A DNA stretch of 64,000 nt from Burkholderiales bacterium (GTDB taxonomy: Bacteria > Pseudomonadota > Gammaproteobacteria > Burkholderiales > SG8-39), in NCBI GenBank assembly GCA_035519135.1, contig DATIWX010000135.1, forward strand, positions 1,459 to 65,458, written 5' to 3'. The notes under the pieces are model-generated. The model ran no database searches and was not told the DNA's origin. It saw nothing but the letters and a program-made list of their open reading frames with translations. The translations under genes were made by a program, and so were the position numbers. Of the stretch, positions 9,945-59,816 are shown piece after piece (position 1 is the first letter of the stretch; every line of letters begins with the position of its first letter).

Positions 9945-9958
9945 TTGATCCAGGTCAA
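9945..9958. promoter_or_regulatory. FNR/FixK-type box TTGATCCAGGTCAA
   Basis: Matches TTGAT-N4-ATCAA with one mismatch. Its centre is 83.5 bp upstream of the ATG at 10035. Confidence 0.6.
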
Positions 9959-10034
9959 ATGCCGTGCGGGCGGGCACGGTAGGTTTGGCGTAGGTGCCGC
10001 GAGACGGCGCGTAGACTTGCGAGGCATTGCCGCC

Positions 10035-11030
10035 ATGACCGAACGCATCCAGGACGTCGCCCATCTGGGCAGGATCGAGCTGCTCACCCCGAAGATCGAG
10101 CGCACGCGCTGGTTTTTCGAAACGCTGCTGGGGATGGAGGTCGCGCACGAGGCGGGCAAGTCCCTCTATCTGCGCGGTTACGGCGATTACGCCTCGAGCA
10201 CGCTCAAGCTCACGGAGTCGGACAGGCCCGGCATCGGCTTCATTTCCTGGCGCACGGCGAGCCCCGAAGCTCTGGACCGCCGGGTGGCGGCGATCAAGAA
10301 GGCGGGCCTGGGCGACCGCTGGCACGAGGCGGAGTTCGGGCGCGGCGCGGCCTTCCGCTTCCGCGATCCCGACGGCCACCACATGGACGTGTACTACGAG
10401 GAGCAGAAGTACGTCGCGCCCGCGCACCTGCGCTCGACGCTCAAGAACCTGCCGATGAAGTACACCGCGCGCGGCGTGGACGTGAGGCGCCTCGACCACC
10501 TCGCGCTGCTGGCGCACGACGTCGGACCGAACCGCAAGTTCGCGCAGGACGTGCTCGGGTTCGCGCTGCGCGAGCAGGTGATCTTCGACCAGGGAAAGAC
10601 CGAGCTCGGGTCCTGGCTCAGCCCTTCGCCCGTGCACCACCAGGTGGCCTACGTCGCCGACGCCAAGGGCGGGCACGGCCGGCTGCACCACATCTCGCTG
10701 TGGGTGGACAACCGCGAAGACGTGCTGCGCGCGGCCGACATCCTCGCGGAGAACGGCGTGTTCATCGAGGCCGGCCCCTCGAAGCACAACAATTCGCAGG
10801 GCTTCTACCTGTATTCCTACGAGCCCGGCGGAAACCGCGTCGAGGTCTACTCCGGCAGCTACCTGGTGTTCGCGCCGGACTGGGAGGTCGTGACCTGGAA
10901 CGAGGACGAGCGCGGTACCGGCGTCTACTGGGGCTCGCCCCTGCCCGATAGCTTCATCACCTACGGCACGCCCGATGTGGCGGAGGAGATGGCCCTGGCG
11001 AGGAAGATCCCGGTTTTCGATCCGGTATAG
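10035..11030 (+). CDS. extradiol ring-cleavage dioxygenase-like protein (catechol 2,3-dioxygenase / VOC superfamily, two-domain)
   Basis: 331 aa starting MTERIQDVAHLGRIELL.. It shows repeated VOC modules (..FRFRDPDGHHMDVYYE.., ..HHISLWVDNREDV..EPGGNRVEVY). Confidence 0.75.
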   Translation: MTERIQDVAHLGRIELLTPKIERTRWFFETLLGMEVAHEAGKSLYLRGYGDYASSTLKLTESDRPGIGFISWRTASPEALDRRVAAIKKAGLGDRWHEAEFGRGAAFRFRDPDGHHMDVYYEEQKYVAPAHLRSTLKNLPMKYTARGVDVRRLDHLALLAHDVGPNRKFAQDVLGFALREQVIFDQGKTELGSWLSPSPVHHQVAYVADAKGGHGRLHHISLWVDNREDVLRAADILAENGVFIEAGPSKHNNSQGFYLYSYEPGGNRVEVYSGSYLVFAPDWEVVTWNEDERGTGVYWGSPLPDSFITYGTPDVAEEMALARKIPVFDPV

Positions 11031-11046
11031 CCGGCCAGGAGCGGAC

Positions 11047-11535
11047 ATGGCGGACGCAACGAAACTTCAGCTGATGCGCGAGTCGGCGCTCGCGACGGAG
11101 CTCGATGCGAAGCAGTGCGCCGTGCTCGCTGATCTGGTCACGGTGCGCGACCTCGCCGACGGCGAGGTGCTGGTCGACGAGGGCGCGAGCGACGATCACG
11201 TGCACACCGTCGTGAGCGGAACGCTCGCGGTGGCGAAGCAGGTCCCGCCGGGAGGCCAGTGGATCAACCTGAACGTCCTCACCAAGGGCGACCTCGCCGG
11301 CGAGCTGGCTTTCATGGACGGCAAGCCGCACTACGCGGCTCTCCGCGCGGTCGGCCCGACCAGGATACTGAGCCTGAAGCGCGAAAGACTCGAATCGCTT
11401 CTCGGCAGCGAGCCGCTCATCGTCTATCGGGTGATGCGCGCCATCTTCCGCGTCGTGCACGGCATACTGCATCGCATGGCGCTGCAGGCGAGCGAGCTCA
11501 CCAATTACATCTACAAGCAGCACGGCAAATACTAG
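11047..11535 (+). CDS. cyclic nucleotide-binding domain protein with no DNA-binding domain
   Basis: 162 aa with a cNMP-binding signature (..GDLAGELAFMDGKPHYAALRAVG..). It is too short to carry a C-terminal HTH. Confidence 0.75.
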   Translation: MADATKLQLMRESALATELDAKQCAVLADLVTVRDLADGEVLVDEGASDDHVHTVVSGTLAVAKQVPPGGQWINLNVLTKGDLAGELAFMDGKPHYAALRAVGPTRILSLKRERLESLLGSEPLIVYRVMRAIFRVVHGILHRMALQASELTNYIYKQHGKY

Positions 11536-11553
11536 GGCCGGAGGTGATTGGGT

Positions 11554-13191
11554 ATGCTTCGGGGAACCGCCCTGAGTGGATTCCCCGCCGTGTCCCGTCC
11601 CAGCGAATCGGACCGCCTCCTCGCCGCCCTGCGCGAGCCTGCCTGCTACCCGCACGCGGCGGGGACGGTCGAGCTGATCGAGACCCATATCTCATGGGTG
11701 TTTCTCGCCGGCGAGTTCGCGTACAAGATCAAGAAGCCGGTGAACCTCGGATTCCTCGATTTCGGCACGCTCGAAAAGCGGCGTTTCTACTGCGAGGAGG
11801 AGCTGCGGCTCAACCGGCGCACGGCGCCGGGCCTCTACGTAGACGTCGTTCCCGTCGCCGAGAGCCGGGACGGGCTGCGCGTGGGCGGGACGGGGAAGGC
11901 GATCGAGTACGCGCTCAGGATGCGGCGTTTCCCGCAGGAAGCCCTCGCCGATGCCGTGGCCCGGCGCGGCGAGCTGCGCGCCGCCCAGGCCGAAGCGATC
12001 GCCGCCGCCATCGCCGCGTTTCACGCCGGCATTCCGGCGGCGGCCCAGGATTCCGGATACGGTTCTCCCGACCATGTCACCGCGCCGGCGCTGGCCAACT
12101 TCGAGCAGCTCGGCGGGCTGGTCGCCGATCCGGCCGAGAGCGCCAGGCTCGAGGAGCTGCGCGACTGGACCCGGAACGAAGGCGCGCGGCTGCGCGAAAC
12201 CTTCGCCGCGCGCAAGCGCGGCGGGTTCGTGCGCGAGTGCCACGGCGACCTGCATCTCGGCAACATCGCGTTTCTCGAGGGGCGGCCCGTGCCGTTCGAT
12301 TGCATCGAATTCGACCCGCGGCTCCGCTGGATCGACGTGATGAACGAAATCGCGTTCCTCGCGATGGATCTGCTCGAGCACGGGCTGAACGCGGCCGCCT
12401 GGCGGTTCCTGAACGCCTATCTCGAGACCACGGGGGACTACGCGGGCGTGCGGGTGCTGCGCTACTACCTCGTCTATCGCGCCACGGTGAGGGCGATGGT
12501 CGCCTGCATACGCCTGCATCAGCCGGGAGCCGGCGCGGCGGCGCAGGGCAGGGCGCACCGCGAGTACGGAGAGTATCTCGCGCTGGCGGGGTCGCTGGCC
12601 GGTTCTGCCCGGCGCGCGCTCATCGTGATGCACGGCCTGTCGGGTTCCGGCAAGACGACCGTGGCGCAGAGGATGTCGGAGAGCCTCGGCGCGGTGCGCG
12701 TGCGCTCCGATGTCGAGCGCAAGCGCCTGCACGGCCTGGCCGCCGGGGCGCGGACGCAGTCGCAGCCGTTCGGCGGGATCTACGCGCCCGAGGCCACGCG
12801 CCTGACCTACGCGAGGCTCGCGCAGGCGGCGCGCGACGTCGTCGAATCGCGATACGGCGTGATCGTCGATGCCGCTTTCCTGCGGCGCGCGGAGCGCGAG
12901 CAGTTCCGGGCGCTCGCCCGGGAGCTCGGAGCGCCGTTCCTGATCGCGTCGTGCCGGGCCGGCGAGGCGGCGCTGCGCGCCCGCGTCGCGCGCAGAGAGA
13001 CGGCGGCGAGCGATGCCTCCGAAGCCGGCGTGTCCGTGCTGGAGAATCAGCTCGCGACGCAGGAGCCGCTCGGCGCCGACGAGCTCGCGCACGCCGCGCT
13101 GATCGACACCGAGCGGGACGAAGCCGCCCTGGAGGAGGCGATCGCGGGAATCGCAGGCCGCCTCGAGACCGCAGGCGCGACTGATGGCTGA
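11554..13191 (+). CDS. bifunctional aminoglycoside-phosphotransferase-like / P-loop (AAA) kinase family protein
   Basis: The N-terminal part has ..ELIETHISWVFLAGEFAYKIKKPV.. The C-terminal part has the Walker A motif MHGLSGSGKTT. GGAGGTG lies 8 nt upstream of the ATG at 11554. Confidence 0.75.
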   Translation: MLRGTALSGFPAVSRPSESDRLLAALREPACYPHAAGTVELIETHISWVFLAGEFAYKIKKPVNLGFLDFGTLEKRRFYCEEELRLNRRTAPGLYVDVVPVAESRDGLRVGGTGKAIEYALRMRRFPQEALADAVARRGELRAAQAEAIAAAIAAFHAGIPAAAQDSGYGSPDHVTAPALANFEQLGGLVADPAESARLEELRDWTRNEGARLRETFAARKRGGFVRECHGDLHLGNIAFLEGRPVPFDCIEFDPRLRWIDVMNEIAFLAMDLLEHGLNAAAWRFLNAYLETTGDYAGVRVLRYYLVYRATVRAMVACIRLHQPGAGAAAQGRAHREYGEYLALAGSLAGSARRALIVMHGLSGSGKTTVAQRMSESLGAVRVRSDVERKRLHGLAAGARTQSQPFGGIYAPEATRLTYARLAQAARDVVESRYGVIVDAAFLRRAEREQFRALARELGAPFLIASCRAGEAALRARVARRETAASDASEAGVSVLENQLATQEPLGADELAHAALIDTERDEAALEEAIAGIAGRLETAGATDG

Positions 13192-14140
13192 GATCGACGT
13201 CTTCAACGGCGACGCGGACGGCATGTGTTCGCTGCGCCAGCTTCGCCTCGCCGAGCCGGCCGACTCGCTGCTGGTCACCGGCCCGAAGCGGGACATCGCC
13301 CTGCTCGACCGCGTCCGGGCCGGGGCGGGCGACGTCGTGACCGTTCTCGACATCTCCCTCGAGCGCAACCGCGCGGCGCTGCTCGCGCTTCTCGGGCGCG
13401 GCGCGCGAGTGCGCTACTTCGATCATCACTTCGCGGGCGAGGTGCCCGTGCATCCGCGGCTCGAGGCCGTGCTCGACGCGTCGCCCGAGAGCTGTACCAG
13501 CGTGCTCGTCGACCGCCACCTCGGCGGGCGCTTCCGCGCCTGGGCTGTGGTCGGGGCCTTCGGCGACAATCTGGACGAGGTCGCGTTGCGCCTGGGCGGC
13601 TCGCTCGCCCTGGGCGCCGCGGAGCTGGAGAAGCTGCGCGAGCTGGGGCGCGGCCTCAACTACAACGCCTACGGCGGGAGCGAGTCCGACCTGCTGGTGC
13701 GTCCTGCGCGGCTGTACGGGCTGCTCGCCCAATACGAGGATCCGCTGAAGTTCGCCGCCAGGGAAAGGATCTTCAGGCGCCTGCAGGGCGCGATGCACGC
13801 GGATCTCAAGGCGGCCATGAGCGTGCCGCCGCACTGGTCGGGCGAGCGCGCCAGCGCGTACCTGCTCCCGAACCGCCCGTCCAGCCGCCGCGTCCTCGGC
13901 GTGTTCGCGAATCATCTTGCCCGCGTCGAGCCGCGCCGCGCGCACGCGGTGCTCGCACCCGAGTCGAACGGCGGCTACATCGTGAGCCTGCGCGTGCCCG
14001 AGACGAGCGGAACGAGCGCCGACGCCTTCTGCCGGGAATTCCCCTCCGGGGGCGGACGGCGCACCGCGGCGGGCATCGACGAGCTGCCCGAGGAGCGGCT
14101 GGCCGAGCTCGTCGAGCGGTTTGCCGCGACGTTCGGCTAG
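13184..14140 (+). CDS. DHH-family phosphoesterase-like protein
   Basis: It overlaps the upstream gene by 8 nt. Motifs are GDADG and YFDHHF. Confidence 0.6.
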   Translation: MAEIDVFNGDADGMCSLRQLRLAEPADSLLVTGPKRDIALLDRVRAGAGDVVTVLDISLERNRAALLALLGRGARVRYFDHHFAGEVPVHPRLEAVLDASPESCTSVLVDRHLGGRFRAWAVVGAFGDNLDEVALRLGGSLALGAAELEKLRELGRGLNYNAYGGSESDLLVRPARLYGLLAQYEDPLKFAARERIFRRLQGAMHADLKAAMSVPPHWSGERASAYLLPNRPSSRRVLGVFANHLARVEPRRAHAVLAPESNGGYIVSLRVPETSGTSADAFCREFPSGGGRRTAAGIDELPEERLAELVERFAATFG

Positions 14141-14147: not shown

Positions 14148-17100
14148 TCACGCCTTCCCGCGCGGGGGGGCCTCGAAGCGCCGGCGGTAAGCGACGTAGT
14201 AGAGCACCGGAATTACCACCAGCGTGAGCGCGGTCGACACGAAGATGCCGAAAATGAGCGCGATCGCCAGGCCGTTGAAGATGGGATCGTCGAGGATGAA
14301 CGCGGCGCCGAGCATCGCCGCGAGCGCGGTGAGCGCGATCGGCTTGGCCCGCGCGATCGCCGACTGAACCACCGCCTCGCCGAAAGGCACGCCTTCCTCG
14401 ACCTTGAGGTTGATGAAGTCGACGAGCAGGATGGAGTTCCGGACGATGATGCCGGCGAGCGCGATCATGCCGATCATCGAGGTGGCGGTGAAGTTGGCGC
14501 CGAGCAGCGCGTGGCCGGGCATCACGCCGATCACGGTGAGAGGAATCGGCGCCATGATCACCAGCGGCGTCACATAGGAGCGGAACTGCGCGACGACCAG
14601 GAGATAGATGAGGATCAGCCCGACGCCGTAGGCCAGGCCCATGTCGCGGAAGGTCTCGTAGGTGACCTGCCATTCGCCGTCCCACTTGATCGCGAACTGC
14701 CGGTACGGGTCGGAGGGCTGGCGCACGAAGTATTCGCCGAGCCCACCGCCTTCCCCTTGGGCGGCGCCCGCGATCCGGGCGCGCGCGGCGAACATGCCGT
14801 AGAGCGGGCTGTCGACGCGCCCCGTCTGATCGCCGATGACGTATACGACCGGGAGCAGGTCCTTGTGATAGAGCGGCCGGTCGCGGTCGTTGCGCGCGAT
14901 ATGGACCACTTCCGAGAGCGGCACCAGCGCACCCGAGGGTGCGCGCACCGCGAGCTTGAGGAATTCGCCCAGCTCCCCCTGCCGCTCGGAGGGCAGCGCA
15001 AGACGCACCGGCACCTCGTACTTCGATGCCCCGTCGTGCAGCGGCGTCACGTCGGCGCCGGACAGCCCCACGCGCATGGTTTCGACGACGTCGCGTCGCG
15101 TCACGCCGAGCAGCGCCGCCTTGCCCTGGTCGACTCTCAGCAGCAGGCGCGGTGCGGCGTCTTCGACGCTGTCGTCGATGCCGACGACGTCCGGGGTCGA
15201 GGCGAGGGCTTCGCGTACGCGCTTGGCGACGCGCACGCGCCCCGGCTCGTCCGGCCCGTAGACCTCCGCGACGATGGGCGAGAGCACCGGCGGCCCGGGC
15301 GGCACCTCCACCACCTTCACCCGCGCGTTCCAACGCAGCGCGATCTCCTCGAGCCTGGGCCGCACGCCTTGCGCGATCTCGTGGCTCTTGCGCGAGCGCT
15401 CCTTCTTGCCGACGAGGTTGACCTGGAGGTCGCCGGCCTCGGAGGCGGTGCGCAGGTAGTACTGGCGCACCAGGCCGTTGAAGCTGATCGGCGAAGCGAG
15501 GCCCGCGTAGGCCTGGTAGTCGGTGACCTCGGGGACGCTCGCGAGGTAGGCGCCCATGTCGTGCAGCGCGCCGGCGGTCGCCTCGAGCGGGGTTCCCGCC
15601 GGCATGTCGACCACGACCTGGAATTCCGACTTGTTGTCGAAGGGGAGCATCTTCAGCACCACCCACTTCACCGCGGCGAGCGAGACGGAGAGCACGATCA
15701 GGGCAGCGATCGCGCCGTACAGCCAGCGCCGGTTGCGCGCGGCCGACGCCGCGCCGACGAAAGGCCCGAGGACGCGGCGGAAAAAACGGTCCAGCCGCCC
15801 GGTCGCCGCCTTCTCGCCGTGGGCGTGCCTGTGCAGCAGCCTGAGCGCGAGCCAGGGCGTGACGGTGAACGCGATCGCGAGCGAGATGACCATCCCCATG
15901 CTGGCGTTGATCGGGATCGGGCTCATGTAGGGGCCCATGAGGCCGGACACGAACGCCATCGGCAGGAGCGCGGCGATCACCGTGAGGGTGGCGAGAATGG
16001 TCGGCCCGCCGACCTCGTCGACCGCGTCCGGGATCACGCCCGTGAGCGGCCCGGGGTCGAGCGACATGCGCCGGTGGATGTTCTCGACCACGACGATGGC
16101 GTCGTCCACCAGGATGCCGATCGAGAAGATCAGCGCGAAGAGCGAGACGCGATTGAGGGTGAAACCCCAGGCCCAGGAGGCGAACAGCGTCGTCGCGAGC
16201 GTGAGCAGCACCGCCATCCCCACGATCAGCGCCTCGCGCCGGCCAAGCGTTACGAACACCAGCACGACCACCGACAAGGTGGCGAAGACGAGCTTGTGGA
16301 TGAGCTGTTGCGCTTTTTCGTCGGCGCTTGCGCCGTAGTTGCGCGTGACGGTGATGCGCACGTCGTCCGGGATCACGGTGCCGCGGAGCTCGTTCATGCG
16401 TTCCAGCACCCGCCCGGCGACGTCCACCGCGTTCTCGCCGGGCTTCTTGGTGATCTGCAGCGTCACCGCCGGTTGCTCCGTGCCCGGGTGCCCGCCCTGC
16501 TTCGCAGCCGATGGTCCGAAGCCCGTCCAGACGTAGCGCGCCGGCTGCTCGGGGCCGTCGATCACCTCGGCCACGTCGGCGAGAAACACCGGACGCCGCT
16601 CGAATGCGCCCACCACCAGCTCCTTCAGGTCGGCGGCCGATTCGAGATAGTTGCCGGTCTCGACCACGATCTCGCGGTTCTCGCGCACCAGCTTCCCGGT
16701 GGGCAGGGCGATGTTGGCGAGCTGCAGGGCGTTGCGTACGTCGAGCGCCGAGACCTCGTAGGCGTTCAGCCGGTCCGGATCGAGCAGCACGCGCACCGCG
16801 CGCCCGGGGCCGCCCAGGGTCTGGACCTCGCGCGTGCCCGGGACGCGCTTGAACTCGATTTCGGCGGCATGAGCGACGCGCTCCAGCTCGAAGGCGCCGC
16901 GGCCGCGGTCTTCGCTCCACAGCGTGAGCGTGACCACGGGAACGTCGTCGATGCCCTTGGGCTTGATGATGGGATCGAGGATGCCCAGCTCGGGCGACAC
17001 CCAGTCGCGGTTGGAATTGATGGTGTCGTAGAGGCGCACCAGCGCGTCGATGCGCGGCACGCCGACCTTGAACTGCACCGTGAGCACCGCCATGCCGGGG

Positions 17101-17363
17101 CGCGACACCGAGAACACGTGCTCGATGCCGCTCATCTGCGCGAGCACCTGCTCGGCGGGCGTGGCGACGAGCGCCTCGACGTCGCGCGCCGAGGCGCCGG
17201 GGAAGGGCACGAAGACGTTCGCCATGGTGACGTTGATCTGCGGTTCCTCCTCGCGCGGCGTCACCGCCACCGCGAACAGGCCGAGCAGGAACGCGACCAG
17301 CGCGATCAGCGGGGTAAGCTGCGAGTCCTGGAAGAACCGCGCGATGCGGCCCGAGATGCCCAT
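14148..17363 (-). CDS. RND efflux transporter permease (AcrB/HAE family)
   Basis: 1071 aa with the 12-TM RND architecture and typical N-terminus (..RFFQDSQLTPLIALVAFLLG..) and C-terminus. Confidence 0.9.
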   Translation of the reverse strand: MGISGRIARFFQDSQLTPLIALVAFLLGLFAVAVTPREEEPQINVTMANVFVPFPGASARDVEALVATPAEQVLAQMSGIEHVFSVSRPGMAVLTVQFKVGVPRIDALVRLYDTINSNRDWVSPELGILDPIIKPKGIDDVPVVTLTLWSEDRGRGAFELERVAHAAEIEFKRVPGTREVQTLGGPGRAVRVLLDPDRLNAYEVSALDVRNALQLANIALPTGKLVRENREIVVETGNYLESAADLKELVVGAFERRPVFLADVAEVIDGPEQPARYVWTGFGPSAAKQGGHPGTEQPAVTLQITKKPGENAVDVAGRVLERMNELRGTVIPDDVRITVTRNYGASADEKAQQLIHKLVFATLSVVVLVFVTLGRREALIVGMAVLLTLATTLFASWAWGFTLNRVSLFALIFSIGILVDDAIVVVENIHRRMSLDPGPLTGVIPDAVDEVGGPTILATLTVIAALLPMAFVSGLMGPYMSPIPINASMGMVISLAIAFTVTPWLALRLLHRHAHGEKAATGRLDRFFRRVLGPFVGAASAARNRRWLYGAIAALIVLSVSLAAVKWVVLKMLPFDNKSEFQVVVDMPAGTPLEATAGALHDMGAYLASVPEVTDYQAYAGLASPISFNGLVRQYYLRTASEAGDLQVNLVGKKERSRKSHEIAQGVRPRLEEIALRWNARVKVVEVPPGPPVLSPIVAEVYGPDEPGRVRVAKRVREALASTPDVVGIDDSVEDAAPRLLLRVDQGKAALLGVTRRDVVETMRVGLSGADVTPLHDGASKYEVPVRLALPSERQGELGEFLKLAVRAPSGALVPLSEVVHIARNDRDRPLYHKDLLPVVYVIGDQTGRVDSPLYGMFAARARIAGAAQGEGGGLGEYFVRQPSDPYRQFAIKWDGEWQVTYETFRDMGLAYGVGLILIYLLVVAQFRSYVTPLVIMAPIPLTVIGVMPGHALLGANFTATSMIGMIALAGIIVRNSILLVDFINLKVEEGVPFGEAVVQSAIARAKPIALTALAAMLGAAFILDDPIFNGLAIALIFGIFVSTALTLVVIPVLYYVAYRRRFEAPPRGKA

Positions 17364-17375
17364 GCGGCCAGGCCC

Positions 17376-18431: not shown

Positions 18432-18652
18432 ATTCCGCCGGGAGAGGCGGCGCTCTTCACGCCGAAGCGCAGCAGGATCGACTCGAGCGGGCAGACCCGG
18501 GTGAAGCCGCTCTGGAACAGGTTCGCGCCGACGAACAGGGTGAACCACAGGAAATGCCTGCTCACGAAGATCGGGCTCGCTTCCACGCCGAGGGCGAGCG
18601 AGGCGATGACAAATGCGCCCGCGAAGATGCGGACCAGCCGTTCGGTCGTCAT
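18428..18652 (-). CDS. DUF2892 (YgaP-like) small membrane protein
   Basis: 74 aa starting MTTERLVRIFAGAFVI.. with ..GANLFQSGFTRVCPLE.. The RBS AAGGAGA is present. Its stop overlaps the MFP GTG start (GTGA). Confidence 0.6.
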   Translation of the reverse strand: MTTERLVRIFAGAFVIASLALGVEASPIFVSRHFLWFTLFVGANLFQSGFTRVCPLESILLRFGVKSAASPGGM

Positions 18653-18700: not shown

Positions 18701-18714
18701 TTGACGCAGATCAA
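18701..18714. promoter_or_regulatory. FNR/FixK-type box TTGACGCAGATCAA
   Basis: One mismatch to the consensus. Its centre is 55.5 bp upstream of the DUF2892 ATG (18652) and 45.5 bp upstream of the ABC gene remnant (18753). Confidence 0.6.
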
Positions 18715-41339: not shown

Positions 41340-41340
41340 A

Positions 41341-45559: not shown

Positions 45560-45576
45560 TCCAGATCAAGCTCCTC

Positions 45577-46692: not shown

Positions 46693-46697
46693 GATGC

Positions 46698-49626: not shown

Positions 49627-49655
49627 GAATCGGGGCGCCGTCCGCGCGTTGATGC

Positions 49656-50189: not shown

Positions 50190-50221
50190 GGCTCCCGCGT
50201 TCACCTGCCGGCGCTGCCCGA

Positions 50222-51235: not shown

Positions 51236-51501
51236 CCGGTCGAAGGCGGCGGCCCGCGGCGCCAGATCAGCTCGCCGTCCCGCCACACCTCGCGCACGCG
51301 ATGCAAGGGCACTGTGTGCAACGTGCCGTCGTCTTCCACCGCGTCGAAGGAGAAGTGCTCGCCAGAAGCAAAGTGGATGCGGCGGAACGGCACCTTGACG
51401 ATCCTCTTCGCGACATGGTCGTCGTAACCGACTGCAAACTCGGATTTCGAGAACTCCGGGTCCCAGCGGATGCGGTTGAGCAGGTCCTGGATGGGGATCA
51501 C
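51232..51501 (-). CDS. DUF504-family protein (found with RNA repair genes)
   Basis: 89 aa: ..LLNRIRWDPEF..VGYDDHV..VPLHRVREVWRDGELIWRR. ATGA overlap with the rtcA stop. Confidence 0.6.
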   Translation of the reverse strand: MIPIQDLLNRIRWDPEFSKSEFAVGYDDHVAKRIVKVPFRRIHFASGEHFSFDAVEDDGTLHTVPLHRVREVWRDGELIWRRGPPPSTG

Positions 51502-52529: not shown

Positions 52530-52554
52530 GCCTCTACGGCCGGCCCGCCAATCC

Positions 52555-52947
52555 TCAAAGCGTGGGTTTGCCGGGCTGGAGAAACTTCTTTTCGTAAGCG
52601 CTCTGGCAGGCGATACAGCGTTTCGCTGTCGGCTCGCTGCGCAACCGCGCCAGCCCGATCTCGCCGCCGCAATCGATGCACGTCCCGTAGCGGCCCTCGC
52701 TTATGCGGGCCAGGGCCGAGTCGATCTCGCGCAGCTCCTGCAGATCGCGGGAAAGCTCGGCGTTCTCGACGTCCGAGATGAGATCGGCGGTGGCTTCGTC
52801 ACCCGTATCCGCGACGGGCCCCGTCGACTGCGAGTAGACATCCTCGCGTGCCTTCGCCGCATCGGCGTGCGCTTCCACCTCGAGAAATTCGCGGCGCTTC
52901 GTCAGCGCCCCCTTGAGTTCCTGCAGTTGTTCGGGCTTCAGTGGCAT
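52555..52947 (-). CDS. DksA/TraR-family C4 zinc-finger protein
   Basis: 130 aa with a coiled-coil N-terminus and ..CIDCGGEI..RCIACQ.. Confidence 0.8.
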   Translation of the reverse strand: MPLKPEQLQELKGALTKRREFLEVEAHADAAKAREDVYSQSTGPVADTGDEATADLISDVENAELSRDLQELREIDSALARISEGRYGTCIDCGGEIGLARLRSEPTAKRCIACQSAYEKKFLQPGKPTL

Positions 52948-52973
52948 GGTGGTTCTCCGTGTCGGTGCTTCGT

Positions 52974-53537
52974 TCAGTCCGGTGCGTAGTCGAGCGGCCA
53001 GCGCTTCGAGAGGAAGCGGACGATGTGCGCGTCCGCGCCGGGCGAGCCATAGGTCCATACGGGCCCGTCCATGACGAGCTTGCCCAGCTTGCAAGGGCGG
53101 ATGTTCAGGGCGAGGACCGGCAGCTTGCGCTGCCGCAGTTCCGCCGCCTGCTCCTCGTATCCGGACTCGCCTTCGAAGAAAAGCCATTCTCGCACGAAGG
53201 CATCCTGCATCCGCTCCAGCTCGTGGCACAGGTCGATGGAGACCGGGACCGGCCGGTCGATCGGCGCTTCGCCCTTGGTGGAGGCCATGAGCCAGTTTCC
53301 GTAGACGTCGTCCTCGACCGACCGGTAGCAGACGGTCTCGCGGGTGGAGTAGTAATGCTCCAGCATGAAGAAACGGGCCGGATGCTCGTGTGCCCTCGCC
53401 CCCGTGAACCAGCCGTACACATGGTCCTCTCTGACGAACCAGAAGAGGGCACACACAAGCCCCGCACCGCGCAGTGCGTAGGCGACGTGAACATGGGGCT
53501 CGATCATGATTTCTCGACTGATTCCGGCAATCTCCAT
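52974..53537 (-). CDS. hypothetical protein, first gene of the apparent rtcA operon
   Basis: 187-aa ORF with normal-looking composition. I recognised no motif. Confidence 0.5.
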   Translation of the reverse strand: MEIAGISREIMIEPHVHVAYALRGAGLVCALFWFVREDHVYGWFTGARAHEHPARFFMLEHYYSTRETVCYRSVEDDVYGNWLMASTKGEAPIDRPVPVSIDLCHELERMQDAFVREWLFFEGESGYEEQAAELRQRKLPVLALNIRPCKLGKLVMDGPVWTYGSPGADAHIVRFLSKRWPLDYAPD

Positions 53538-53567: not shown

Positions 53568-53581
53568 TTGCGCTAGATCAA
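53568..53581. promoter_or_regulatory. degenerate FNR-type box TTGCGCTAGATCAA in a divergent region
   Basis: The right half-site is perfect and the left half matches 3/5. Its centre is 37.5 bp from the ATG at 53537 and 67.5 bp from the ATG at 53642. Confidence 0.35.
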
Positions 53582-53641: not shown

Positions 53642-54184
53642 ATGCAAGTCCCATTGGAGATTACGGTAAGGGGTATGCCGCACTCGCCCGCCCTCGAGGC
53701 GCGCATCCGCGAGAAGGCGGCAAGATTGGAGGAGTTCGATTCGCGCATCATCCGCTGCCACGTCATGGTGGAAGAGTCCGGCAAGCACCAGCATCAGGGG
53801 CATCGGTTTACCGTGCGCATCGACGTGCGCGTTCCCGGGCGCGAGATCGCGGTAACCCACGAACACCACGAGGACGTCTTCGTCGCGCTGCGGGACGCGT
53901 TTGACGCCGCCAAGCGACAGCTGGAGGACGTGGTCCGCGAGAAGCGCGGCGACGTCAAGGTCCACGTGGTCCCGCAGCACGGGCGCGTCGCGCGGCTCAG
54001 TTTCGACGAGGGCTTCGGTTTCATCGAGACCTCAGACGGACGGGAACTCTATTTCAGCCGTGAAAACGTCGTGTACCCGGCGTTCGAACGCTTGGAACCC
54101 GACATGCCGGTGCAGTTCATCGAGGAGGTTGCCGGTGAAGGTCCTCAGGCAAAGCGGGTGAGCGCCGGCAAGCACGCCGTTTAG
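53642..54184 (+). CDS. HPF/RaiA-type ribosome hibernation factor fused to a C-terminal cold-shock domain
   Basis: The N-terminus is MQVPLEITVRGMPHSPALEARIREKAARLEEF..FVALRDAFDAAKRQL. The C-terminus is ..GRVARLSFDEGFGFIETSDGRELYFS.. Confidence 0.8.
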   Translation: MQVPLEITVRGMPHSPALEARIREKAARLEEFDSRIIRCHVMVEESGKHQHQGHRFTVRIDVRVPGREIAVTHEHHEDVFVALRDAFDAAKRQLEDVVREKRGDVKVHVVPQHGRVARLSFDEGFGFIETSDGRELYFSRENVVYPAFERLEPDMPVQFIEEVAGEGPQAKRVSAGKHAV

Positions 54185-54204
54185 CTCGCAATCAGGAGGT
54201 CGCC

Positions 54205-54378
54205 ATGACCGAGGAGAAGAAGCCTTCCAAACGCGAAATACCGCAGCCCGAAATCCAGGAAGGGCACAGCCGCGGCAAAGCGCGCGATGACAAGCTGAAG
54301 CGCATCATCAAGCGTCACCCCACGCGCGACGAGCCCCGTGTCGACGACGTGGACGAGATGGACTTGCCGCCCTCCTAG
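54205..54378 (+). CDS. 57-aa highly charged small protein (not in the supplied ORF track)
   Basis: AGGAGG lies 6 nt upstream of the ATG at 54205. My translation is MTEEKKPSKREIPQPEIQEGHSRGKARDDKLKRIIKRHPTRDEPRVDDVDEMDLPPS*. Confidence 0.45.
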   Translation: MTEEKKPSKREIPQPEIQEGHSRGKARDDKLKRIIKRHPTRDEPRVDDVDEMDLPPS

Positions 54379-54693: not shown

Positions 54694-55143
54694 TCAGTGG
54701 CGCGACTGCTGCTCCTGGAAGCGCTCGCGCCCGATCACCTGGGCGAGCAAGATGATCTGTTCTCCGACGACCTTGAGCAGGTCGTCCAGGGTGACGATCC
54801 CAGCCAGCCCGCCCTGATCATCCACCACCGGTATGCGCCGCACGCCCTTGTGGCGCATGAGCTCCACCGTTTCGAAGATATCGCTTCCCTCGCCGACGGT
54901 GACGAGCTCCCGACCCATGAGGTCTCCCGCTGTGACTAGCGCCGGATCGACTTCCTTCGCCATGACCTCGACCACCAGATCCCGATCGGTGACGATGCCA
55001 ACGGCGACCTTCTTGCCGTTGGGCTGGTCGACGACTACGACGTCGCCCACGTGCGAATCCCGCATGAGTTGGGACAATTCGAGCGCGCTCGCCTTCCTGT
55101 GGCACTCGATCACTTCCCGGATACAAAAGTCTCCGACGCGCAT
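54694..55143 (-). CDS. CBS-domain pair protein
   Basis: 149 aa with two CBS repeats (..VGIVTDRDLV.., ..LAGIVTLDDLL..). Confidence 0.85.
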   Translation of the reverse strand: MRVGDFCIREVIECHRKASALELSQLMRDSHVGDVVVVDQPNGKKVAVGIVTDRDLVVEVMAKEVDPALVTAGDLMGRELVTVGEGSDIFETVELMRHKGVRRIPVVDDQGGLAGIVTLDDLLKVVGEQIILLAQVIGRERFQEQQSRH

Positions 55144-55259
55144 AAGGCCTCCTGCTCTCTCGCAACCGTTTTCAAAGATCCCGCTATTTCATTCTCGACG
55201 GCAGGCGGATCGTCCGCCCGGCGACCATGAACGCGCCGCGGCCCAGGAAGGCGACCACT

Positions 55260-55592
55260 TTACTTGGGCTCGCCCGACCAGTTGTATGCGTGGACCAGCC
55301 CTCGCTGGTCGAACTTGATCTGGAGAAGCTTGACGCGCGCGTTCCCCATGTCGGGAAGATTGCCCGCGCCATGGTAATAGGCCCATTCTTCATAACGCGT
55401 GCCGCTGCTCTCTACGGCCACTCCAACGGCGGTCGGGGCGCCGAGCCAGGCGCGAACCTCAGTCTGGGTGGTAACGCCGCGCTGAACGCGGGATTCGAAG
55501 GCTGCAAGATCGAAGTCCCGGCCTATCTGGACGCTCGCGCAGGCCGAGATCATCAGCAGCACCGGGAGAACAACGATGGCCGGACGCATCAT
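55260..55592 (-). CDS. SmpA/OmlA (BamE-like) outer membrane lipoprotein
   Basis: 110 aa with the lipobox LMISAC and ..GVTTQTEVRAWLGAP.. Confidence 0.7.
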   Translation of the reverse strand: MMRPAIVVLPVLLMISACASVQIGRDFDLAAFESRVQRGVTTQTEVRAWLGAPTAVGVAVESSGTRYEEWAYYHGAGNLPDMGNARVKLLQIKFDQRGLVHAYNWSGEPK

Positions 55593-55642: not shown

Positions 55643-55656
55643 TTGATGTGGATCAA
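55643..55656. promoter_or_regulatory. FNR/FixK-type box TTGATGTGGATCAA (perfect)
   Basis: Its centre is 57.5 bp upstream of the ATG at 55592. It overlaps the stop of the GNAT gene. Confidence 0.65.
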
Positions 55657-56189
55657 GCGCCCTGCAGGTCCCTGGAGATGCGCATGATGGTGGGGTCCTG
55701 CGGCGCCCGCTCCGCCTTGAAGCCGAGCGCGCGGACGAAGCGCAGCATCTCGGCGTTGGCAGAGAGGACGAAGCCCTCCATGCGCGCGAGGCCGCGCTCC
55801 TTCGCGGCGTGAATCAGATCCTCCATGAGGACCCCTGCAAGCCCGGTCTTGTGCCAGGCGTCGGCGATGACGATCCCGAGCTCGCAGATCCCGCCGGAAA
55901 GATTGGACACATAGCGCGCCTCGCCGACGATTTCCTCGCGCTCGCCGTGGCGCGCCGTGCACACCAGCGCCATGTGCAGGTCGTAGTCGATGTCGGTCAG
56001 GAAGTGAATGAGCTTGTCCGAAGGCGCGTGCACCCATTTCTGGAAACGCATGTACTTGCTCTCCCCGGACAGCTCGTCAAGGAACTCGCGCACAAGGGGC
56101 GCATCGTCCGGGCGTATCGGCCGTATCGTCACCGTCCTTCCGTCGAACAGGTGGTGCTCGCGTACGAGGTGCGCGGGATACTCAGCCAT
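55653..56189 (-). CDS. GNAT-family acetyltransferase (Pat-type C-terminal-domain-like)
   Basis: 178 aa with ..IRPIRPDDAPLVREFLDELSGESKYMRF.. It overlaps the upstream acyl-CoA ligase gene by 8 nt. Confidence 0.8.
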   Translation of the reverse strand: MAEYPAHLVREHHLFDGRTVTIRPIRPDDAPLVREFLDELSGESKYMRFQKWVHAPSDKLIHFLTDIDYDLHMALVCTARHGEREEIVGEARYVSNLSGGICELGIVIADAWHKTGLAGVLMEDLIHAAKERGLARMEGFVLSANAEMLRFVRALGFKAERAPQDPTIMRISRDLQGA

Positions 56190-57870
56190 GAAGGCGTGCG
56201 GCCTCTTCCTTCAGTTGCCGGTGCAGGATCTTGCCGATCGGCGTCTTGGGGAGCTGCTCGCGGAACTCGATGCGCTTGGGCAGCTTGTACCCGGTGAGAT
56301 GCCTCGCGCAGTGGGCGAGCAGGGCTTCGGCGGTGAGCGCGGGGTCCCTGCGCACGACGAAGAGCGCGACCACCTCGCCGCTGCGCTCGTCGGGCATGCC
56401 GACCGCGCCGGCGTCCCTGACCCCGGGATGCAGCATCGCGACTTCCTCGATCTCGGCAGGGTAGGCCTTGAAGCCCGACACCACCACGATGTCCTTCTTC
56501 CGGTCGCGGAACTCGACGTAGCCGCGCTCGTCCATGCGGCCCATGTCGCCCGTCTTCAGCCAGCCGTCCGCCGTGAACGCCCTGGCGGTTTCCGACGGCG
56601 CATTCCAGTAGCCGCGCATCACCTGCGGTCCGCGCACGCCGATCTCGCCGATTTCACCTGGAGCGACTTCCCTGCCGTCCTCGTCGAGAATCGTCACCTC
56701 GGTCGAGGGGAGGGGCAGCCCGAGCTTGCCGCTGAATTCCCGGGAATCGAAGCGGTTCGCGCACACGTTCGGCGAGGCCTCGGTGAGGCCGTAGCCTTCG
56801 ACCAGCGGTACGCCGGTCGCTTTCTGCCAGCGCTCGGCGACCGGGCGCTGCACGGCCATGCCGCCTGCGACCGCCAGCTTGAGCGTGCCGCGGCTCGACG
56901 CGGCCACCGCTTCGAATCCCGGAGCGTTCAGCAGCGCGTTGAACAAGGTGTTCACGCCGGTGATGGCGGTGAACCGGGTCTTCCGCAATTCCGCGACGAA
57001 GCCGGCGATGTCGCGCGGATTGACGATCAGCACGTTGCGCCCGCCCAGCTTCAAAAAGACGAGCAGGTTCGCAGTGAGAGCGAAGACATGGTAGAGCGGC
57101 AGCGCGGTGATCACCGTTTCCGCGCCTTCCGCGAGCGTCCCCCGGGCCCAGGCCGCGACCTGCTCGACATTGGCAACCACGCTGCCGTGCGTGAGAATCG
57201 CGCCCTTGGCGAGGCCGGTGGTGCCGCCGGTGTACTGGAGAAAGGCGATGTCGCCGGGGCCCACGCCGGCTTCGCCGAGCGCTTGCGCGGCGCCCTGCTC
57301 CAGCGCTTCGCGGAACCGGAGGGCCCCGGGCAGGCGCCAGCGGGGAACCATGCGCTTCAGATATTTGACCGCGAAATTCACGAGCCATCGCTTCGGCGAC
57401 GGAAACAGGTCGCCGACCCGGGTGGCAATGACGAAGCGCACCGCGGTTCCCGGGAGTGCCTCCTGCAGGGTGCGGGCGAAGTTCTCCAGGACGACGATGG
57501 CGGTCGCACCCGAATCGGCGAGCTGGTGCGCGAGCTCGCTCGCGGTATACAGCGGATTGACGTTGACCACCGTCAGGCCGGCGCGCAGCGCCCCGAACAG
57601 CGCCACGGGATATTGCAGGAGATTGGGGAGCATGATCGCGACGCGTTCTCCCCTTTGCAGCCGCAGGACTTGCTGCAGGTAGGCGCCGAAATCCCGGGAA
57701 AGCCCCTCCAGCTCCCCGTACGTGATCGACACGCCCATGCTGGAGAGGGCGGTCCGGTCGCGGAAGCGCGCGCAGCTCCGCCCGAGCAGCTCGCCCAGGG
57801 AACCGCAGGCCGGCGGGTCGATCTCGGCCGGCACTCCTTTAGGATAGGAATCCAGCCAGATCTTCTTCAT
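56182..57870 (-). CDS. long-chain fatty acid-CoA ligase (AMP-forming)
   Basis: 562 aa with ..LQYTGGTTGLAKGAILTH.., ..GYGLTE.. and the C-terminal ..LPKTPIGKILHR.. Confidence 0.9.
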   Translation of the reverse strand: MKKIWLDSYPKGVPAEIDPPACGSLGELLGRSCARFRDRTALSSMGVSITYGELEGLSRDFGAYLQQVLRLQRGERVAIMLPNLLQYPVALFGALRAGLTVVNVNPLYTASELAHQLADSGATAIVVLENFARTLQEALPGTAVRFVIATRVGDLFPSPKRWLVNFAVKYLKRMVPRWRLPGALRFREALEQGAAQALGEAGVGPGDIAFLQYTGGTTGLAKGAILTHGSVVANVEQVAAWARGTLAEGAETVITALPLYHVFALTANLLVFLKLGGRNVLIVNPRDIAGFVAELRKTRFTAITGVNTLFNALLNAPGFEAVAASSRGTLKLAVAGGMAVQRPVAERWQKATGVPLVEGYGLTEASPNVCANRFDSREFSGKLGLPLPSTEVTILDEDGREVAPGEIGEIGVRGPQVMRGYWNAPSETARAFTADGWLKTGDMGRMDERGYVEFRDRKKDIVVVSGFKAYPAEIEEVAMLHPGVRDAGAVGMPDERSGEVVALFVVRRDPALTAEALLAHCARHLTGYKLPKRIEFREQLPKTPIGKILHRQLKEEAARLHG

Positions 57871-57871
57871 G

Positions 57872-59767
57872 TCAGGGAACGGCCGAGAGCGGGCGCGCCG
57901 GGCTCGCCGCGGCCTTGGGCGCGTCCATCAGGCTCCGCAGCTCCTCCGCGGACAGTGTTTCCTGGCGCAGCAGGGACTCGGCGCCGCGCTCCAGCACCTC
58001 GCGCCTGCGCCCGAGTATCTCGAGCGCCGAATCGAGCGCCTGCTTCACGATGCCCCGGACCGCCAGGTCGATCTCGCGGGCGGTTTCCTCGCTGAATTGG
58101 CGCGTCGGTATCGCGCCGGCGACAGGGCCGAGAAACCCGGGCCGGGTGTCGTCGTAGGCGACGCTGCCGAGCCGGTCGTCCATTCCGAAGCGCATCACCA
58201 TGCTGCGCGCGATATCGGTCGCCTTGATCAGATCGTCGGCCGCGCCGGTGGAGAGGTTCCCGAAGACGAGCAACTCGGCGGCCCGGCCGCCGAGCAGCAC
58301 CGCCATCCTGTTCTGGAGCTCCTCGCGCGCCATGAGGTAGCGGTCTTCCGTCGGCCGCTGGATGGTGTAGCCGAGCGCGCTCACGCCGCGCGGGATGATC
58401 GAGATCTTGTGCACCGGGTCCACGCGCGGCAGGGTCATCGCGACGATGGCATGCCCCATCTCGTGATGGGCGACGGCTTTCCGCTCCTCGGGATTGAGCA
58501 GGCGGTTGCGCTTTTCCAGGCCGGCGACGATGCGCTCGATCGCGCCGGTGAAATCCGCCCGCTCGATCGCTGCCGCTCCCCGCCGCGTCGCGAGCAGCGC
58601 CGCCTCGTTGACCAGCGTGGCGAGATCTGCTCCCGAGAATCCCGGCGTGAGCGCGGCGATCTCCTCGGAGTCGACATTGGACGCGAGCCGGACCTTGCGC
58701 AGGTGCACGCGCAGGATCTGCACGCGGCCGCTCTTGTCGGGGCGGTCGACCAGCACCTGCCGGTCGAATCGCCCGGCGCGCAGCAGCGCCGGATCGAGGA
58801 TCTCCGGACGGTTGGTCGCGGCGAGCAACACCACGCCGCCGCTCGTGTCGAAGCCGTCCATCTCGGCGAGCAGCTGGTTGAGCGTCTGCTCTTTCTCGTC
58901 GTGGCCGCCGAGGACGAACGAGCTGCGCGCGCGGCCGAGGGCGTCGAGCTCGTCGATGAATATGATCGCCGGGGCGGCCTGGCGCGCCTGGTCGAAGAGG
59001 TCGCGCACGCGCGCCGCGCCCACGCCGACGAACATCTCGACGAATTCCGAGCCGCTGATGGAGAAGAACGGCACGCTCGCTTCTCCTGCGACCGCGCGCG
59101 CGAGCAGGGTCTTCCCCGTTCCGGGAGGGCCGACCAGCAGGATGCCCTTGGGCATGTGCGCCCCCAGGCGGCCGTAGGATTTCGGATCGCGCAGGAAGCT
59201 GATCACCTCCTTCAGCTCGTCCTTGGCCTCGTCGACGCCGGCGACGTCCTCGAAGGTGACCTTGGTGTCGGTCTCCATGTACACCTTGGCCTTGCTCTTG
59301 CCGACCGCGAACAGCCCGCCGCCCAGCCCCTGCTGTCCGGTCATGCGCTTCATCGCGAAGCTCCAGATGGCGAAGAACACGACGGCCGGAACGACCCAGG
59401 AGAGCAGCATCTGGAGCCATTTGCTCTCGGCGCGGCCGGAGAAGCGCACCTTCGCCGCCTCGAGGTCCTGGACGAGCGCCGGATCGTCGATCTTCAGGGT
59501 GGTGAAGGCGTGTTCCCCCGGCCCGAGTTGCTTGAGCCGATCGACGCTCTCGCGCGGGAGGACGGAGTCCAGCCCCTCGGCGTTCATCGTTCCGGTGATG
59601 AGCTGCTCGCCGAGCGCCACGTCCTTCACCTTGCCCGCCCTGACCAGGGCCTTGAAGTCGCTGTAGGCGAGGTCGCGCGCGGGACTGCCCAGGTACTCCT
59701 GCATCGCGACGATGACCAGCATCGCGACCACGAAGTACCAGAGGGAAAATTGATGCTTCTTTTCCAT
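57872..59767 (-). CDS. ftsH: ATP-dependent zinc metalloprotease FtsH
   Basis: 631 aa with Walker [12 protein letters not shown], the SRH, and the zinc motif HEMGHA. Confidence 0.92.
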
Positions 59768-59802
59768 GGGATCAAGACTAGGACCCTCGGCTCTCCCGGA
59801 GT

Positions 59803-59816
59803 TTGATCCAGGTCAA
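59803..59816. promoter_or_regulatory. FNR/FixK-type box TTGATCCAGGTCAA, centred between divergent ftsH and the Hsp70 gene
   Basis: Its centre is 42.5 bp from the ftsH ATG (59767) and 41.5 bp from the Hsp70 ATG (59851). -10-like hexamers TAGTCT (minus strand, 59775-59780) and TACAGT (59839-59844) are in register. Confidence 0.65.

Follow-up and report, generated by a model that had tools for sequence, protein, structure and literature searches.

The stretch analyzed here (the window: 64,000 nt, positions 1,459 to 65,458 of contig DATIWX010000135.1, from the Burkholderiales bacterium assembly GCA_035519135.1) carries 64 called genes and, in the gaps between them, 14 copies, one of them degenerate, of a short dyad, TTGAYNNNNRTCAA (TTGAY-N4-RTCAA), the box of the FNR/FixK/Anr regulators, which we read as probably joining most of these genes into one low-oxygen regulon. 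About 46 of the 64 genes fall into some 20 units that appear to be box-driven, and one more such unit is a pseudogene. Genes were called with a codon-usage model trained on the window and annotated by Pfam and NCBIfam, with a partial cross-check of the calls against a 15-kb metagenome contig identical to part of the window (ERZ27256607); look-ups with RtcB and Usp matched this contig alone, and one with the exact PolX protein matched nothing. The operon boundaries are our own calls, in which same-strand genes with short gaps are grouped. The boxes span 9945-59816, a stretch of about 52 kb, and are listed here with the unit or direction served and the -10-like hexamer found past each box (distances in nucleotides after the box):

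9945..9958, box TTGATCCAGGTCAA, serving the plus-strand operon 10035-14140; TAGGTT 21 nt after the box
18701..18714, box TTGACGCAGATCAA, bidirectional; TATTCT at +21 (plus side) and GAACAT at +21 (minus side)
24343..24356, box TTGATCTGGATCAA, serving the plus-strand gene 24415-24960; CAAAAT at +21
26476..26489, box TTGATCTGGATCAA, bidirectional; GAGCAT at +21 (plus side) and CATATT at +20 (minus side)
29464..29477, box TTGACCTGAATCAA, serving the plus-strand operon 29535..31494; TATTCT at +21
32640..32653, box TTGACCCATGTCAA, bidirectional; CATTAT at +21 (plus side) and TACCCT at +22 (minus side)
37262..37275, box TTGATCCAGGTCAA, serving the plus-strand operon 37340..42765; TAGCGT at +21
44446..44459, box TTGACGTACATCAA, bidirectional; GAGAAT at +21 (plus side) and GAGAAT at +22 (minus side)
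45556..45569, box TTGATCCAGATCAA, serving the minus-strand gene 45177-45491; TAAGGT at +21
49613..49626, box TTGATCCAAATCAA, serving the minus-strand operon 45577-49523; CAACAT at +21; in tandem with 49649
49649..49662, box TTGATGCATGTCAA, serving the plus-strand operon from ATG 49698; CAAAGT at +22
53568..53581, degenerate box TTGCGCTAGATCAA, bidirectional; TAGAGT at +21 (minus side) and AAGCAT at +22 (plus side)
55643..55656, box TTGATGTGGATCAA, serving the minus-strand genes 54694-55592; TAGTCT at +21
59803..59816, box TTGATCCAGGTCAA, common to FtsH and Hsp70, which diverge from it; TACAGT and TAGTCT, both at +22

Thirteen of these are exact matches, against a mean of 0.04 and a maximum of 1 in 100 dinucleotide-preserving shuffles of the window. 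All the exact boxes have FNR-type TTGA half-sites, none the CRP-type GTGA; the 13 exact sites and the degenerate one fit the anaerobox dyad TTGAT-N4-ATCAA, and the central two positions of the box are invariably Y then R. On a weight matrix derived from the 13 exact sites and run across the window, those sites score 20.9-26.9 bits and the degenerate site 12.1 bits, and every remaining 14-mer scores 9.5 bits or less and lies within coding sequence. An initial annotation of this DNA, which had proposed many FNR/FixK palindromes, is borne out and if anything slightly understated the case, having counted 12 exact sites. Eleven of its 12 coordinates stand, the other (45546) being a typing error for 45556, and its list was incomplete, having overlooked TTGATGCATGTCAA at 49649, 36 bp from 49613; its degenerate site at 53568 is present and looks functional. 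Its estimate of about 0.04 chance matches equals our shuffle mean, and its box-to-start distances of 36-97 bp come close to the 37.5-100.5 nt that we measure from box centre to start codon. All 14 boxes lie between genes, though the gene calls span 91.8% of the window, a distribution with a chance probability of the order of 1e-15 by our own arithmetic; box 24343 touches its upstream open reading frame (ORF) at the stop codon only, and box 44446 falls within an over-extended start call. Compared with one another, the 40-nt stretches that flank the boxes left and right show no relationship, their identity averaging 0.29 and peaking at 0.425, and therefore the boxes are independent sites and not copies of a repeat element.

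Box sequences identical to those of the window are among the sites validated by chromatin immunoprecipitation (ChIP) for FnrL in Rhodobacter sphaeroides, and the degenerate TTGCG half-site of 53568 also occurs in the ChIP-validated FnrL site at hemN of that organism (PMC2908626). The TTGCGC-N3-GATCAA variant recurs at 53568 and 20613 in the window and, in two Bradyrhizobium loci, at 9463 (locus L052) and 9090 (L056), both upstream of archease-rtcB, where TTGCGCnnGATCAA has the same degenerate half-site as 53568. A weak candidate ahead of the MOT1 transporter gene, TTGCGCACGATCAA at 20613, was rejected: it falls within the kinase gene, and no -10-like hexamer follows it at +20 to +22.

The strongest internal evidence for function is the promoter geometry. 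Where a side of a box faces a gene, defined as having a gene start within about 100 nt, a -10-like hexamer NAnnnT lies 20-22 nt past the box in 20 of 20 cases, against none of the 8 non-facing sides and a background of 7.4%; the strict form TAnnnT is found at +21 or +22 in 10 of 28 directions, against a background of 0.24%. If the hexamer is placed at -12 to -7, the centre of the box comes out between about -40.5 and -41.5, which is the geometry of a class II FNR promoter, with the box centred near -41.5 relative to the predicted starts. In Herbaspirillum, fnr1 has an Fnr site with its centre at -42, and universal stress proteins (USPs) and cytochromes c are among the Fnr targets (PMC5934665). 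Six boxes (18701, 26476, 32640, 44446, 53568 and 59803) serve divergent genes, and the intergenic region 49523-49698 has two boxes 36 bp apart, each of them placed as class II for one of the two directions. From the side on which a -10 is present, one can predict the direction in which a box fires. Tandem boxes 33-38 bp apart between divergent genes are seen at 49613-49662 in the window and in four loci elsewhere (L006 6943/6976, L022 257/294, L078 9302/9335 and L105 1260/1298); each box of such a pair is class II for one direction and hence at about -77 for the opposite one.

In six units the start codon follows the -10 hexamer by 6-8 nt, which puts it at 40.5-42.5 nt from the centre of the box:

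alanine dehydrogenase (AlaDH), ATG 32605, minus strand, 41.5 nt from the box centre
ABC ATPase, likely ATG 44411, minus strand, 41.5 nt
Hsp70, ATG 59851, plus strand, 41.5 nt
FtsH, ATG 59767, minus strand, 42.5 nt
membrane protein, ATG 49698, plus strand, 42.5 nt
UbiA, GTG 26523, plus strand, 40.5 nt

Since the ATG or GTG sits at the expected transcription start, the six messages would be leaderless. The N-termini of AlaDH, Hsp70 and FtsH look canonical. When the boxes of the window are pooled with those of the rtcB-anchored loci described below, the ATG of a long ORF after the box shows a local peak at +33 to +36, with 15 cases that include PolX (L002), a USP (Bradyrhizobium L052) and a fatty-acyl-AMP ligase (FAAL)-acyltransferase (L078). 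These distances are suggestive of leaderless expression for several box-driven units.

The geometry is not a peculiarity of one contig. An RtcB scan of 185,579 species genomes gave 80 rtcB-anchored loci, the best RtcB match being 91% identical (a metagenome-assembled genome [MAG] labelled Gammaproteobacteria), followed by Burkholderiales and Betaproteobacteria MAGs at about 75%; the window therefore belongs to an uncultured lineage akin to Burkholderiales. Exact boxes are strongly enriched in 16 of the 80 loci, where some 0.01-0.05 are expected per locus: 7 in a Rhodanobacteraceae MAG (21 kb), 6 in Vulcaniibacterium, 6 in Bradyrhizobium and 7 in each of two alphaproteobacterial MAGs. Separately, one metagenome contig carries 8 boxes per 13.8 kb. 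Cultured relatives that have a box-dense island are Vulcaniibacterium gelatinicum (L022), Mizugakiibacter sediminis (L027) and Bradyrhizobium (L052); in the loci retrieved from them, FtsH, Hsp70, AlaDH and ABC ATPase genes are not seen behind boxes. Among the 74 boxes of the rtcB loci, TAnnnT occurs at +21 in 18 cases and at +22 in 12, and at no other offset in more than 4. The fixed-distance -10 of the window is thus repeated elsewhere, and because the peak at +21/+22 appears in unrelated genomes, we regard the promoter geometry as independently replicated. An exact box lies ahead of archease-rtcB in 11 of 76 loci, against 0 of 76 for a control region within rtcB. The box-associated families that recur in other loci are archease-RtcB, PolX, APH+AAA_33, HPF plus cold-shock domain (HPF-CSD), USP, CBS, ElaB, AlaDH, PGA_cap, FAAL-acyltransferase and a metallo-beta-lactamase (MBL)-fold protein; Hsp20, phosphoribosyltransferase-type proteins and a P-type ATPase seemingly also stand behind boxes elsewhere, as far as inspection of N-termini by eye, with no family search, can tell. 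Altogether, Beta-, Gamma- and Alphaproteobacteria have the box, the -10 spacing and the gene families in common around rtcB. The closest relative, L001, has its genes in another order but keeps boxes at the ElaB, AlaDH/archease and CBS promoters, and the box-to--10 segment on the archease side is nearly identical to that of the PolX promoter of the window (plus side of 32640).

The units behind the boxes, for which every item of the gene list in the initial annotation is confirmed by Pfam, are as follows:

10035..14140, plus strand: glyoxalase/extradiol-dioxygenase-like protein; cyclic-nucleotide (cNMP)-binding-domain-only protein; APH + AAA_33 kinase-like protein; DHHA1-domain protein; no gap longer than 18 nt
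14148..18652, minus strand: YgaP-like membrane protein, membrane-fusion protein and RND pump, an operon (Pfam)
18753..19378, plus strand: deletion remnant, the start of an ABC ATPase joined to the end of an outer-membrane protein, behind the intact 18701 promoter
24415..24960, plus strand: periplasmic LTXXQ / Spy-CpxP-like protein (Pfam)
24979..26405, minus strand: monohaem cytochrome c and multihaem cytochrome c (Pfam)
26523..29448, plus strand: UbiA prenyltransferase, OYE-type flavin oxidoreductase and Zn alcohol dehydrogenase (Pfam)
29535..31494, plus strand: universal stress protein and Na/sulfate-type symporter (Pfam)
31487..32605, minus strand: alanine dehydrogenase (Pfam)
32700..37227, plus strand: PolX-PHP, archease, RtcB RNA ligase and tandem-Usp protein (Pfam)
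37340..42765, plus strand: PaoABC-like molybdo-flavo-FeS oxidoreductase (Fer2/MoCoBD/FAD), cytochrome c, nitroreductase and cytochrome c (Pfam)
42821..44411, minus strand: ABC ATPase and ABC-2 permease (Pfam)
44520..45146, plus strand: nitroreductase-family protein (Pfam)
45177..45491, minus strand: ElaB/DUF883 protein (Pfam)
45577..49523, minus strand: ACP / fatty-acyl-AMP ligase / PlsC-type acyltransferase fusion and PGA_cap (CapA-like) protein (Pfam)
49698..51235, plus strand: membrane protein of no known family and metallo-beta-lactamase-fold protein (Pfam)
51232..53537, minus strand: 187-aa protein of no family, DksA/TraR zinc-finger protein, RtcA RNA 3'-phosphate cyclase and MJ1316 cyclic-end recognition domain protein
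53675..54378, plus strand: hibernation factor of the HPFcold type (HPF + cold-shock domain) plus a 57-aa ORF (Pfam)
54694..55592, minus strand: small lipoprotein and CBS-pair protein (Pfam)
55653..59767, minus strand: FtsH paralogue, acyl-CoA synthetase and GNAT acetyltransferase (Pfam)
59851..61674, plus strand: DnaK/Hsp70 paralogue (Pfam)

By domain count there are three Usp domains over two genes, two nitroreductases and several c-type cytochromes. Two of these genes are mishandled by automatic calling. For alanine dehydrogenase, the automatic call on the identical contig (31487-32677; 8941-10131 of L082) gives 396 aa and swallows box 32640; with the canonical start MLIGVPREIK the protein is 372 aa, and because of the over-extension box 32640 is lost to any scan that masks called genes. 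Archease (34484-34900, plus strand) is cut to 106 aa by automatic calls: its conserved N-terminus SFSYFEHDADIG lies in frame upstream of the called ATG 34580, with no ATG, GTG or TTG ahead of it, the sole start candidate being a CTG that shares bases with the stop codon of PolX (CTGA). This arrangement suggests that ribosomes re-initiate there, coupled to PolX, on a non-canonical start codon. The LTXXQ/Spy-like gene behind box 24343 is the last of a run of small plus-strand ORFs (22957-24960) with Gly/Met-rich N-terminal stretches (MGGxMGPGMMGG...), the others having no family match. Just left of the first box, at 8300-9800, lies a patch of about 60% GC, against 68% elsewhere, with three small minus-strand membrane-protein ORFs, one of them PEMT/ICMT-like; this patch could be the island boundary. 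The tRNA and Rfam scans of the window gave no match and no integrase was found, and hence there is no evidence for a mobile element. The window opens, in a part with no box, with cbb3 oxidase maturation genes (3-2867, plus strand: ccoP, ccoG/FixG, FixH and a small membrane ORF), for which the ccoN promoter would lie beyond the left end, and then has a 1090-aa Cache-HAMP-GAF-PAS-PAS histidine kinase (2977-6249) without a partner regulator. A role for this kinase as a FixL-like oxygen sensor was considered and dropped, as a reading of its PAS domains by eye showed no FixL-type haem motif.

The most direct precedent is lxa, a locus activated by low oxygen in Burkholderia cenocepacia J2315, with 50 genes in 50.7 kb and 17 intergenic points that bear an Anr/Fnr-like motif (Sass et al. 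2013, PMC3721108), which makes accurate the parallel drawn in the initial annotation. Low oxygen induces lxa as much as 240-fold, and anoxic survival requires the locus (PMC3721108). Like lxa, the window has a cluster some 50 kb long in which most intergenic points bear the motif (17 in lxa, 14 here), and at the level of protein families, from a comparison of Pfam hits with Table 4 of PMC3721108, the two have in common multiple USPs, Zn alcohol dehydrogenase, nitroreductase, cytochrome c, an FtsH-type protease, ABC transporters, an MBL-fold protein and two-component systems. Unlike lxa, the window comes from a different, uncultured lineage and lacks a lysine decarboxylase, and among the domains of its proteins none of the lxa hallmarks alpha-crystallin, polyhydroxyalkanoate synthase, acetate kinase/Pta, class II ribonucleotide reductase, ribokinase or an internal Anr-like regulator was found, whereas PolX, archease-RtcB, RtcA, HPF-CSD, Hsp70, AlaDH, the PaoABC-like enzyme and the FAAL-acyltransferase are extras of the window. 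Some such hallmarks (the Hsp20, P-type ATPase and phosphoribosyltransferase-type proteins mentioned above) seem to be present in related islands. The wrecked ORF at 18753-19378, which stands behind an intact 18701 box and TATTCT -10, consists of 44 ABC ATPase codons ending in the Walker A motif (GPSGS), after which comes, out of frame, the C-terminal piece of an outer-membrane beta-barrel protein (...YARYYF*). An ABC/outer-membrane-protein transport operon such as that of lxa seems to have lost its middle by deletion here. Comparison with the wider set of FNR, Anr, FnrL and FixK2 regulons (E. coli, Pseudomonas, R. sphaeroides, Herbaspirillum and Bradyrhizobium) gives the same TTGAT-N4-ATCAA consensus, the same class II position at about -41.5/-42 and several of the same targets, namely USPs, c-type cytochromes, a DksA-like protein and alcohol dehydrogenases. 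Those regulons, however, are chromosome-wide and centred on respiration (cbb3 oxidase, hemN, denitrification), whereas the window has about 20 promoters in 52 kb, centred on stress, repair and hibernation. The island is very likely one regulon for survival at low oxygen, and regulons of this kind have been described before in Burkholderia.

An analogy to the mycobacterial DosR dormancy regulon, also raised in the initial annotation, holds at the level of protein families and is richer than first noted, as it takes in RtcB and a CapA-like protein besides USPs, nitroreductases, a CBS protein and a ribosome factor; in the DosR regulon the counterparts are Rv2631 (RtcB), Rv0079 (the ribosome factor RafH), Rv0574c (CapA-like) and Rv2626c (CBS) (PMC5309233). 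In a search of the PDB the window CBS protein matches Rv2626c at E = 4e-12, the nitroreductase is closest to 3hj9 (annotated oxidoreductase), with Acg not among the matches, and the USP has a weak match to DosR-regulon proteins; in this test for close homology to those proteins, the similarity proved to be at family level only. DosR, moreover, is a NarL-type response regulator with its own Dev box; the motif of the window is unrelated to that box, being FNR-type, and its sole response regulator is OmpR-type. The likeness lies in function and protein family. The lxa and DosR parallels are both already in the literature.

The less familiar parts, as predicted from the DNA, are the RtcB, RtcA, PolX and HPF-cold-shock-domain genes behind boxes and the apparently leaderless transcripts. 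The enzymes RtcB and RtcA are the same as those of E. coli, which has a single rtcBA operon under a divergently encoded RtcR and sigma-54, but in the window rtcB (34910-36343, plus strand) and rtcA (51498-52529, minus strand) belong to two different operons, with 15 kb between them and an FNR-type box ahead of both, RtcB alongside archease, PolX and a USP, and RtcA alongside DksA/TraR and MJ1316-domain proteins; no Sigma54_activat domain and no RtcR was found among the window proteins. Our literature search found no paper that links RtcB to FNR/FixK control. RtcB has been reported to re-ligate the 3' end of 16S rRNA. The window HPF-CSD protein (53675-54184) matches PDB 9t0z_9 ("ribosome hibernation promoting factor") at E = 4e-44 over residues 4-165, an entry which we take to be the HPFcold structure of a preprint on Coxiella. 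In that preprint, HPFcold is Coxiella burnetii CBU_0020, with the same HPF + cold-shock-domain architecture as the window protein, and its cold-shock domain is reported to clamp the anti-Shine-Dalgarno end of 16S rRNA (bioRxiv 10.1101/2025.11.08.686982). The cold-shock domain of HPFcold protects the 16S 3' end. The window gene differs in being behind a low-oxygen-type box and near rtcB, a context on which the passages of the preprint consulted are silent. HPF-CSD homologues lie within 10 kb of rtcB in 15 of the 80 genomes, and PolX is likewise near rtcB; such homologues are seen in loci L006, L033, L042, L049 and L083, and in L033, a Coxiellaceae MAG, the gene directly adjoins archease. This proximity hints at a conserved module for ribosome and nucleic-acid preservation. 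The divergent FtsH/Hsp70 pair, with one box in its 83-bp spacer (57872-61674), may instead be lineage-specific: a metagenome scan with the FtsH paralogue gave 80 contigs (L083-L162), mostly with unrelated FtsH at 64% identity or less, and none of the 80, which carry the nearest FtsH relatives, has Hsp70 as the neighbour of FtsH. Two further box-dense contigs, L083 and L112, came from the same scan.

The simplest account of these observations is that the 14 boxes are binding sites of an activator that works as a dimer and belongs, within the CRP-FNR superfamily, to the FNR/FixK/Anr branch, and that the island is one low-oxygen regulon, which we consider probable. Three independent in-silico lines support functional FNR/FixK-type sites, namely the geometry, the enrichment in related loci and the shared gene content, and on these the low-oxygen regulon put forward in the initial annotation can be upheld. 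The activator, encoded outside the window, would bind as a dimer to a box that overlaps the -35 region and is centred about 41.5 nt upstream of the transcription start, in class II fashion, and would bring sigma-70 RNA polymerase to a promoter that is weak by itself. Six boxes would fire both ways and the 49613/49649 pair would provide one box for each direction, so as to drive some 20 transcription units and about 46 genes. Once active, most likely under oxygen limitation, the regulator would switch on a persistence programme with five arms: alternative electron transfer (c-type cytochromes, the PaoABC-like enzyme, nitroreductases, OYE, alcohol dehydrogenase and AlaDH); universal stress proteins; proteostasis (FtsH, Hsp70 and the Spy-like protein); envelope, transport and lipid remodelling; and nucleic-acid and ribosome preservation (PolX, archease-RtcB, RtcA and the HPF-cold-shock-domain factor). 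Binding, activation, transcription starts and operon boundaries are all predictions from the DNA.

Some of the related islands encode a regulator of their own. Regulators with an E--SR recognition helix are encoded in islands L006, L012, L116, L128 and L141; that of L012 is an FNR with the cysteine cluster, and those of L006 (recognition helix ETVSR) and L116 are FixK/Dnr-like proteins that lack it. By analogy, the regulator of the window could be a direct [4Fe-4S] oxygen sensor, as in Herbaspirillum, E. coli and Pseudomonas, or a FixK under FixLJ, an arrangement proposed for Burkholderia (PMC12071387). A tblastn search of the window with an E. coli FNR query found no match; the matches of that query in related loci were checked by reading their sequences only. 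The first box operon encodes a 162-aa protein with only a cNMP-binding domain (11047-11535, plus strand), between the glyoxalase-fold and APH + AAA_33 proteins; it was considered as a truncated FNR and rejected, as it has neither a helix-turn-helix nor a cysteine cluster at its N-terminus, and its scores against the FixK and CRP models fall well short of their cut-offs.

Several points weigh against the low-oxygen regulon. By Pfam and NCBIfam, no window protein has a Crp-type helix-turn-helix and no CRP/FNR regulator with such a domain is encoded in the window, as had been said from the outset. Some of the -10 elements (GAGCAT, CAACAT and CAAAGT) are weak, the gene starts are our own calls, with the 41.5-42.5 nt distances depending on the start codons chosen, and six genes at 19392-24346 (the MOT1 transporter, a histidine kinase, the OmpR-type regulator and three small ORFs) have no convincing box. 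Finally, the target sequences of FNR, FixK and DNR are virtually identical (PMC2908626), and since FNR, FixK and Dnr boxes are indistinguishable by sequence, we infer the oxygen signal from gene content and by analogy to experimentally characterized regulons that share this box, namely lxa, Anr, FixK2 and FnrL.

That last point is the basis for the main rival, in which the boxes are functional CRP/FNR-family sites that answer to another signal, above all nitric oxide through a Dnr/NNR-type regulator, or else redox state, as in FixK2 cysteine oxidation, or a cyclic nucleotide. The regulators of L006 and L116 without an oxygen-sensing cysteine cluster would fit it, as would the nitroreductases of the window, the weak NrfA-like similarity of its multihaem cytochrome and the cNMP-binding-only protein of the first box operon. 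However, no denitrification genes (nar, nir, nor, nos) are found in the window, its content fits regulons established experimentally under oxygen limitation (lxa, Anr, FixK2 and Herbaspirillum Fnr), and FixK-type regulators without the cysteines usually sit under the oxygen sensor FixLJ, which leaves a signal other than oxygen as an unlikely reading. A classical cAMP-CRP regulon for catabolite control or starvation is far less probable still: CRP is of the same superfamily, shares the dyad geometry and class II architecture, and a cNMP-binding protein is encoded in the island, but the exact half-sites are all TTGA and not the GTGA of TGTGA-N6-TCACA, there are no catabolic sugar operons, and the cNMP-binding protein has no DNA-binding domain. 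The notion that the palindromes are a dispersed REP- or MITE-like repeat, or an effect of chance or composition, with no regulatory role, is effectively refuted: short intergenic palindromes are indeed typical of REP elements, but none of the 100 shuffles reached 2 matches, the flanks are as unrelated as noted above, the sole other conserved feature is a -10 hexamer at fixed distance on gene-facing sides only, and box and spacing recur in unrelated genomes.

The architecture is exceptionally clear, with about 20 promoters of one geometry, such that a regulon can be read from sequence alone, and under the low-oxygen reading islands of the lxa type are extended past Burkholderia to uncultured soil and sediment proteobacteria. 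A broader and distinctly more tentative possibility is that the window is one case of a widely shared, horizontally reshuffled proteobacterial kit for anoxic persistence, in which each small module would have its own FNR/FixK class II promoter, the conserved core would be archease-RtcB, RtcA, PolX and HPFcold, and a subset of modules would be leaderless. RNA repair in many non-enteric bacteria would then be under the control of oxygen and not of RtcR, and the resemblance to DosR would reflect the same protein families under unrelated regulators. In any case, the boxes provide predictions for genes whose regulation is little known outside enterobacteria (rtcB, rtcA, polX and HPFcold), as well as for the leaderless expression of FtsH, Hsp70 and alanine dehydrogenase. 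If these hold true, oxygen sensing would be tied to RNA repair and ribosome hibernation in many environmental bacteria.

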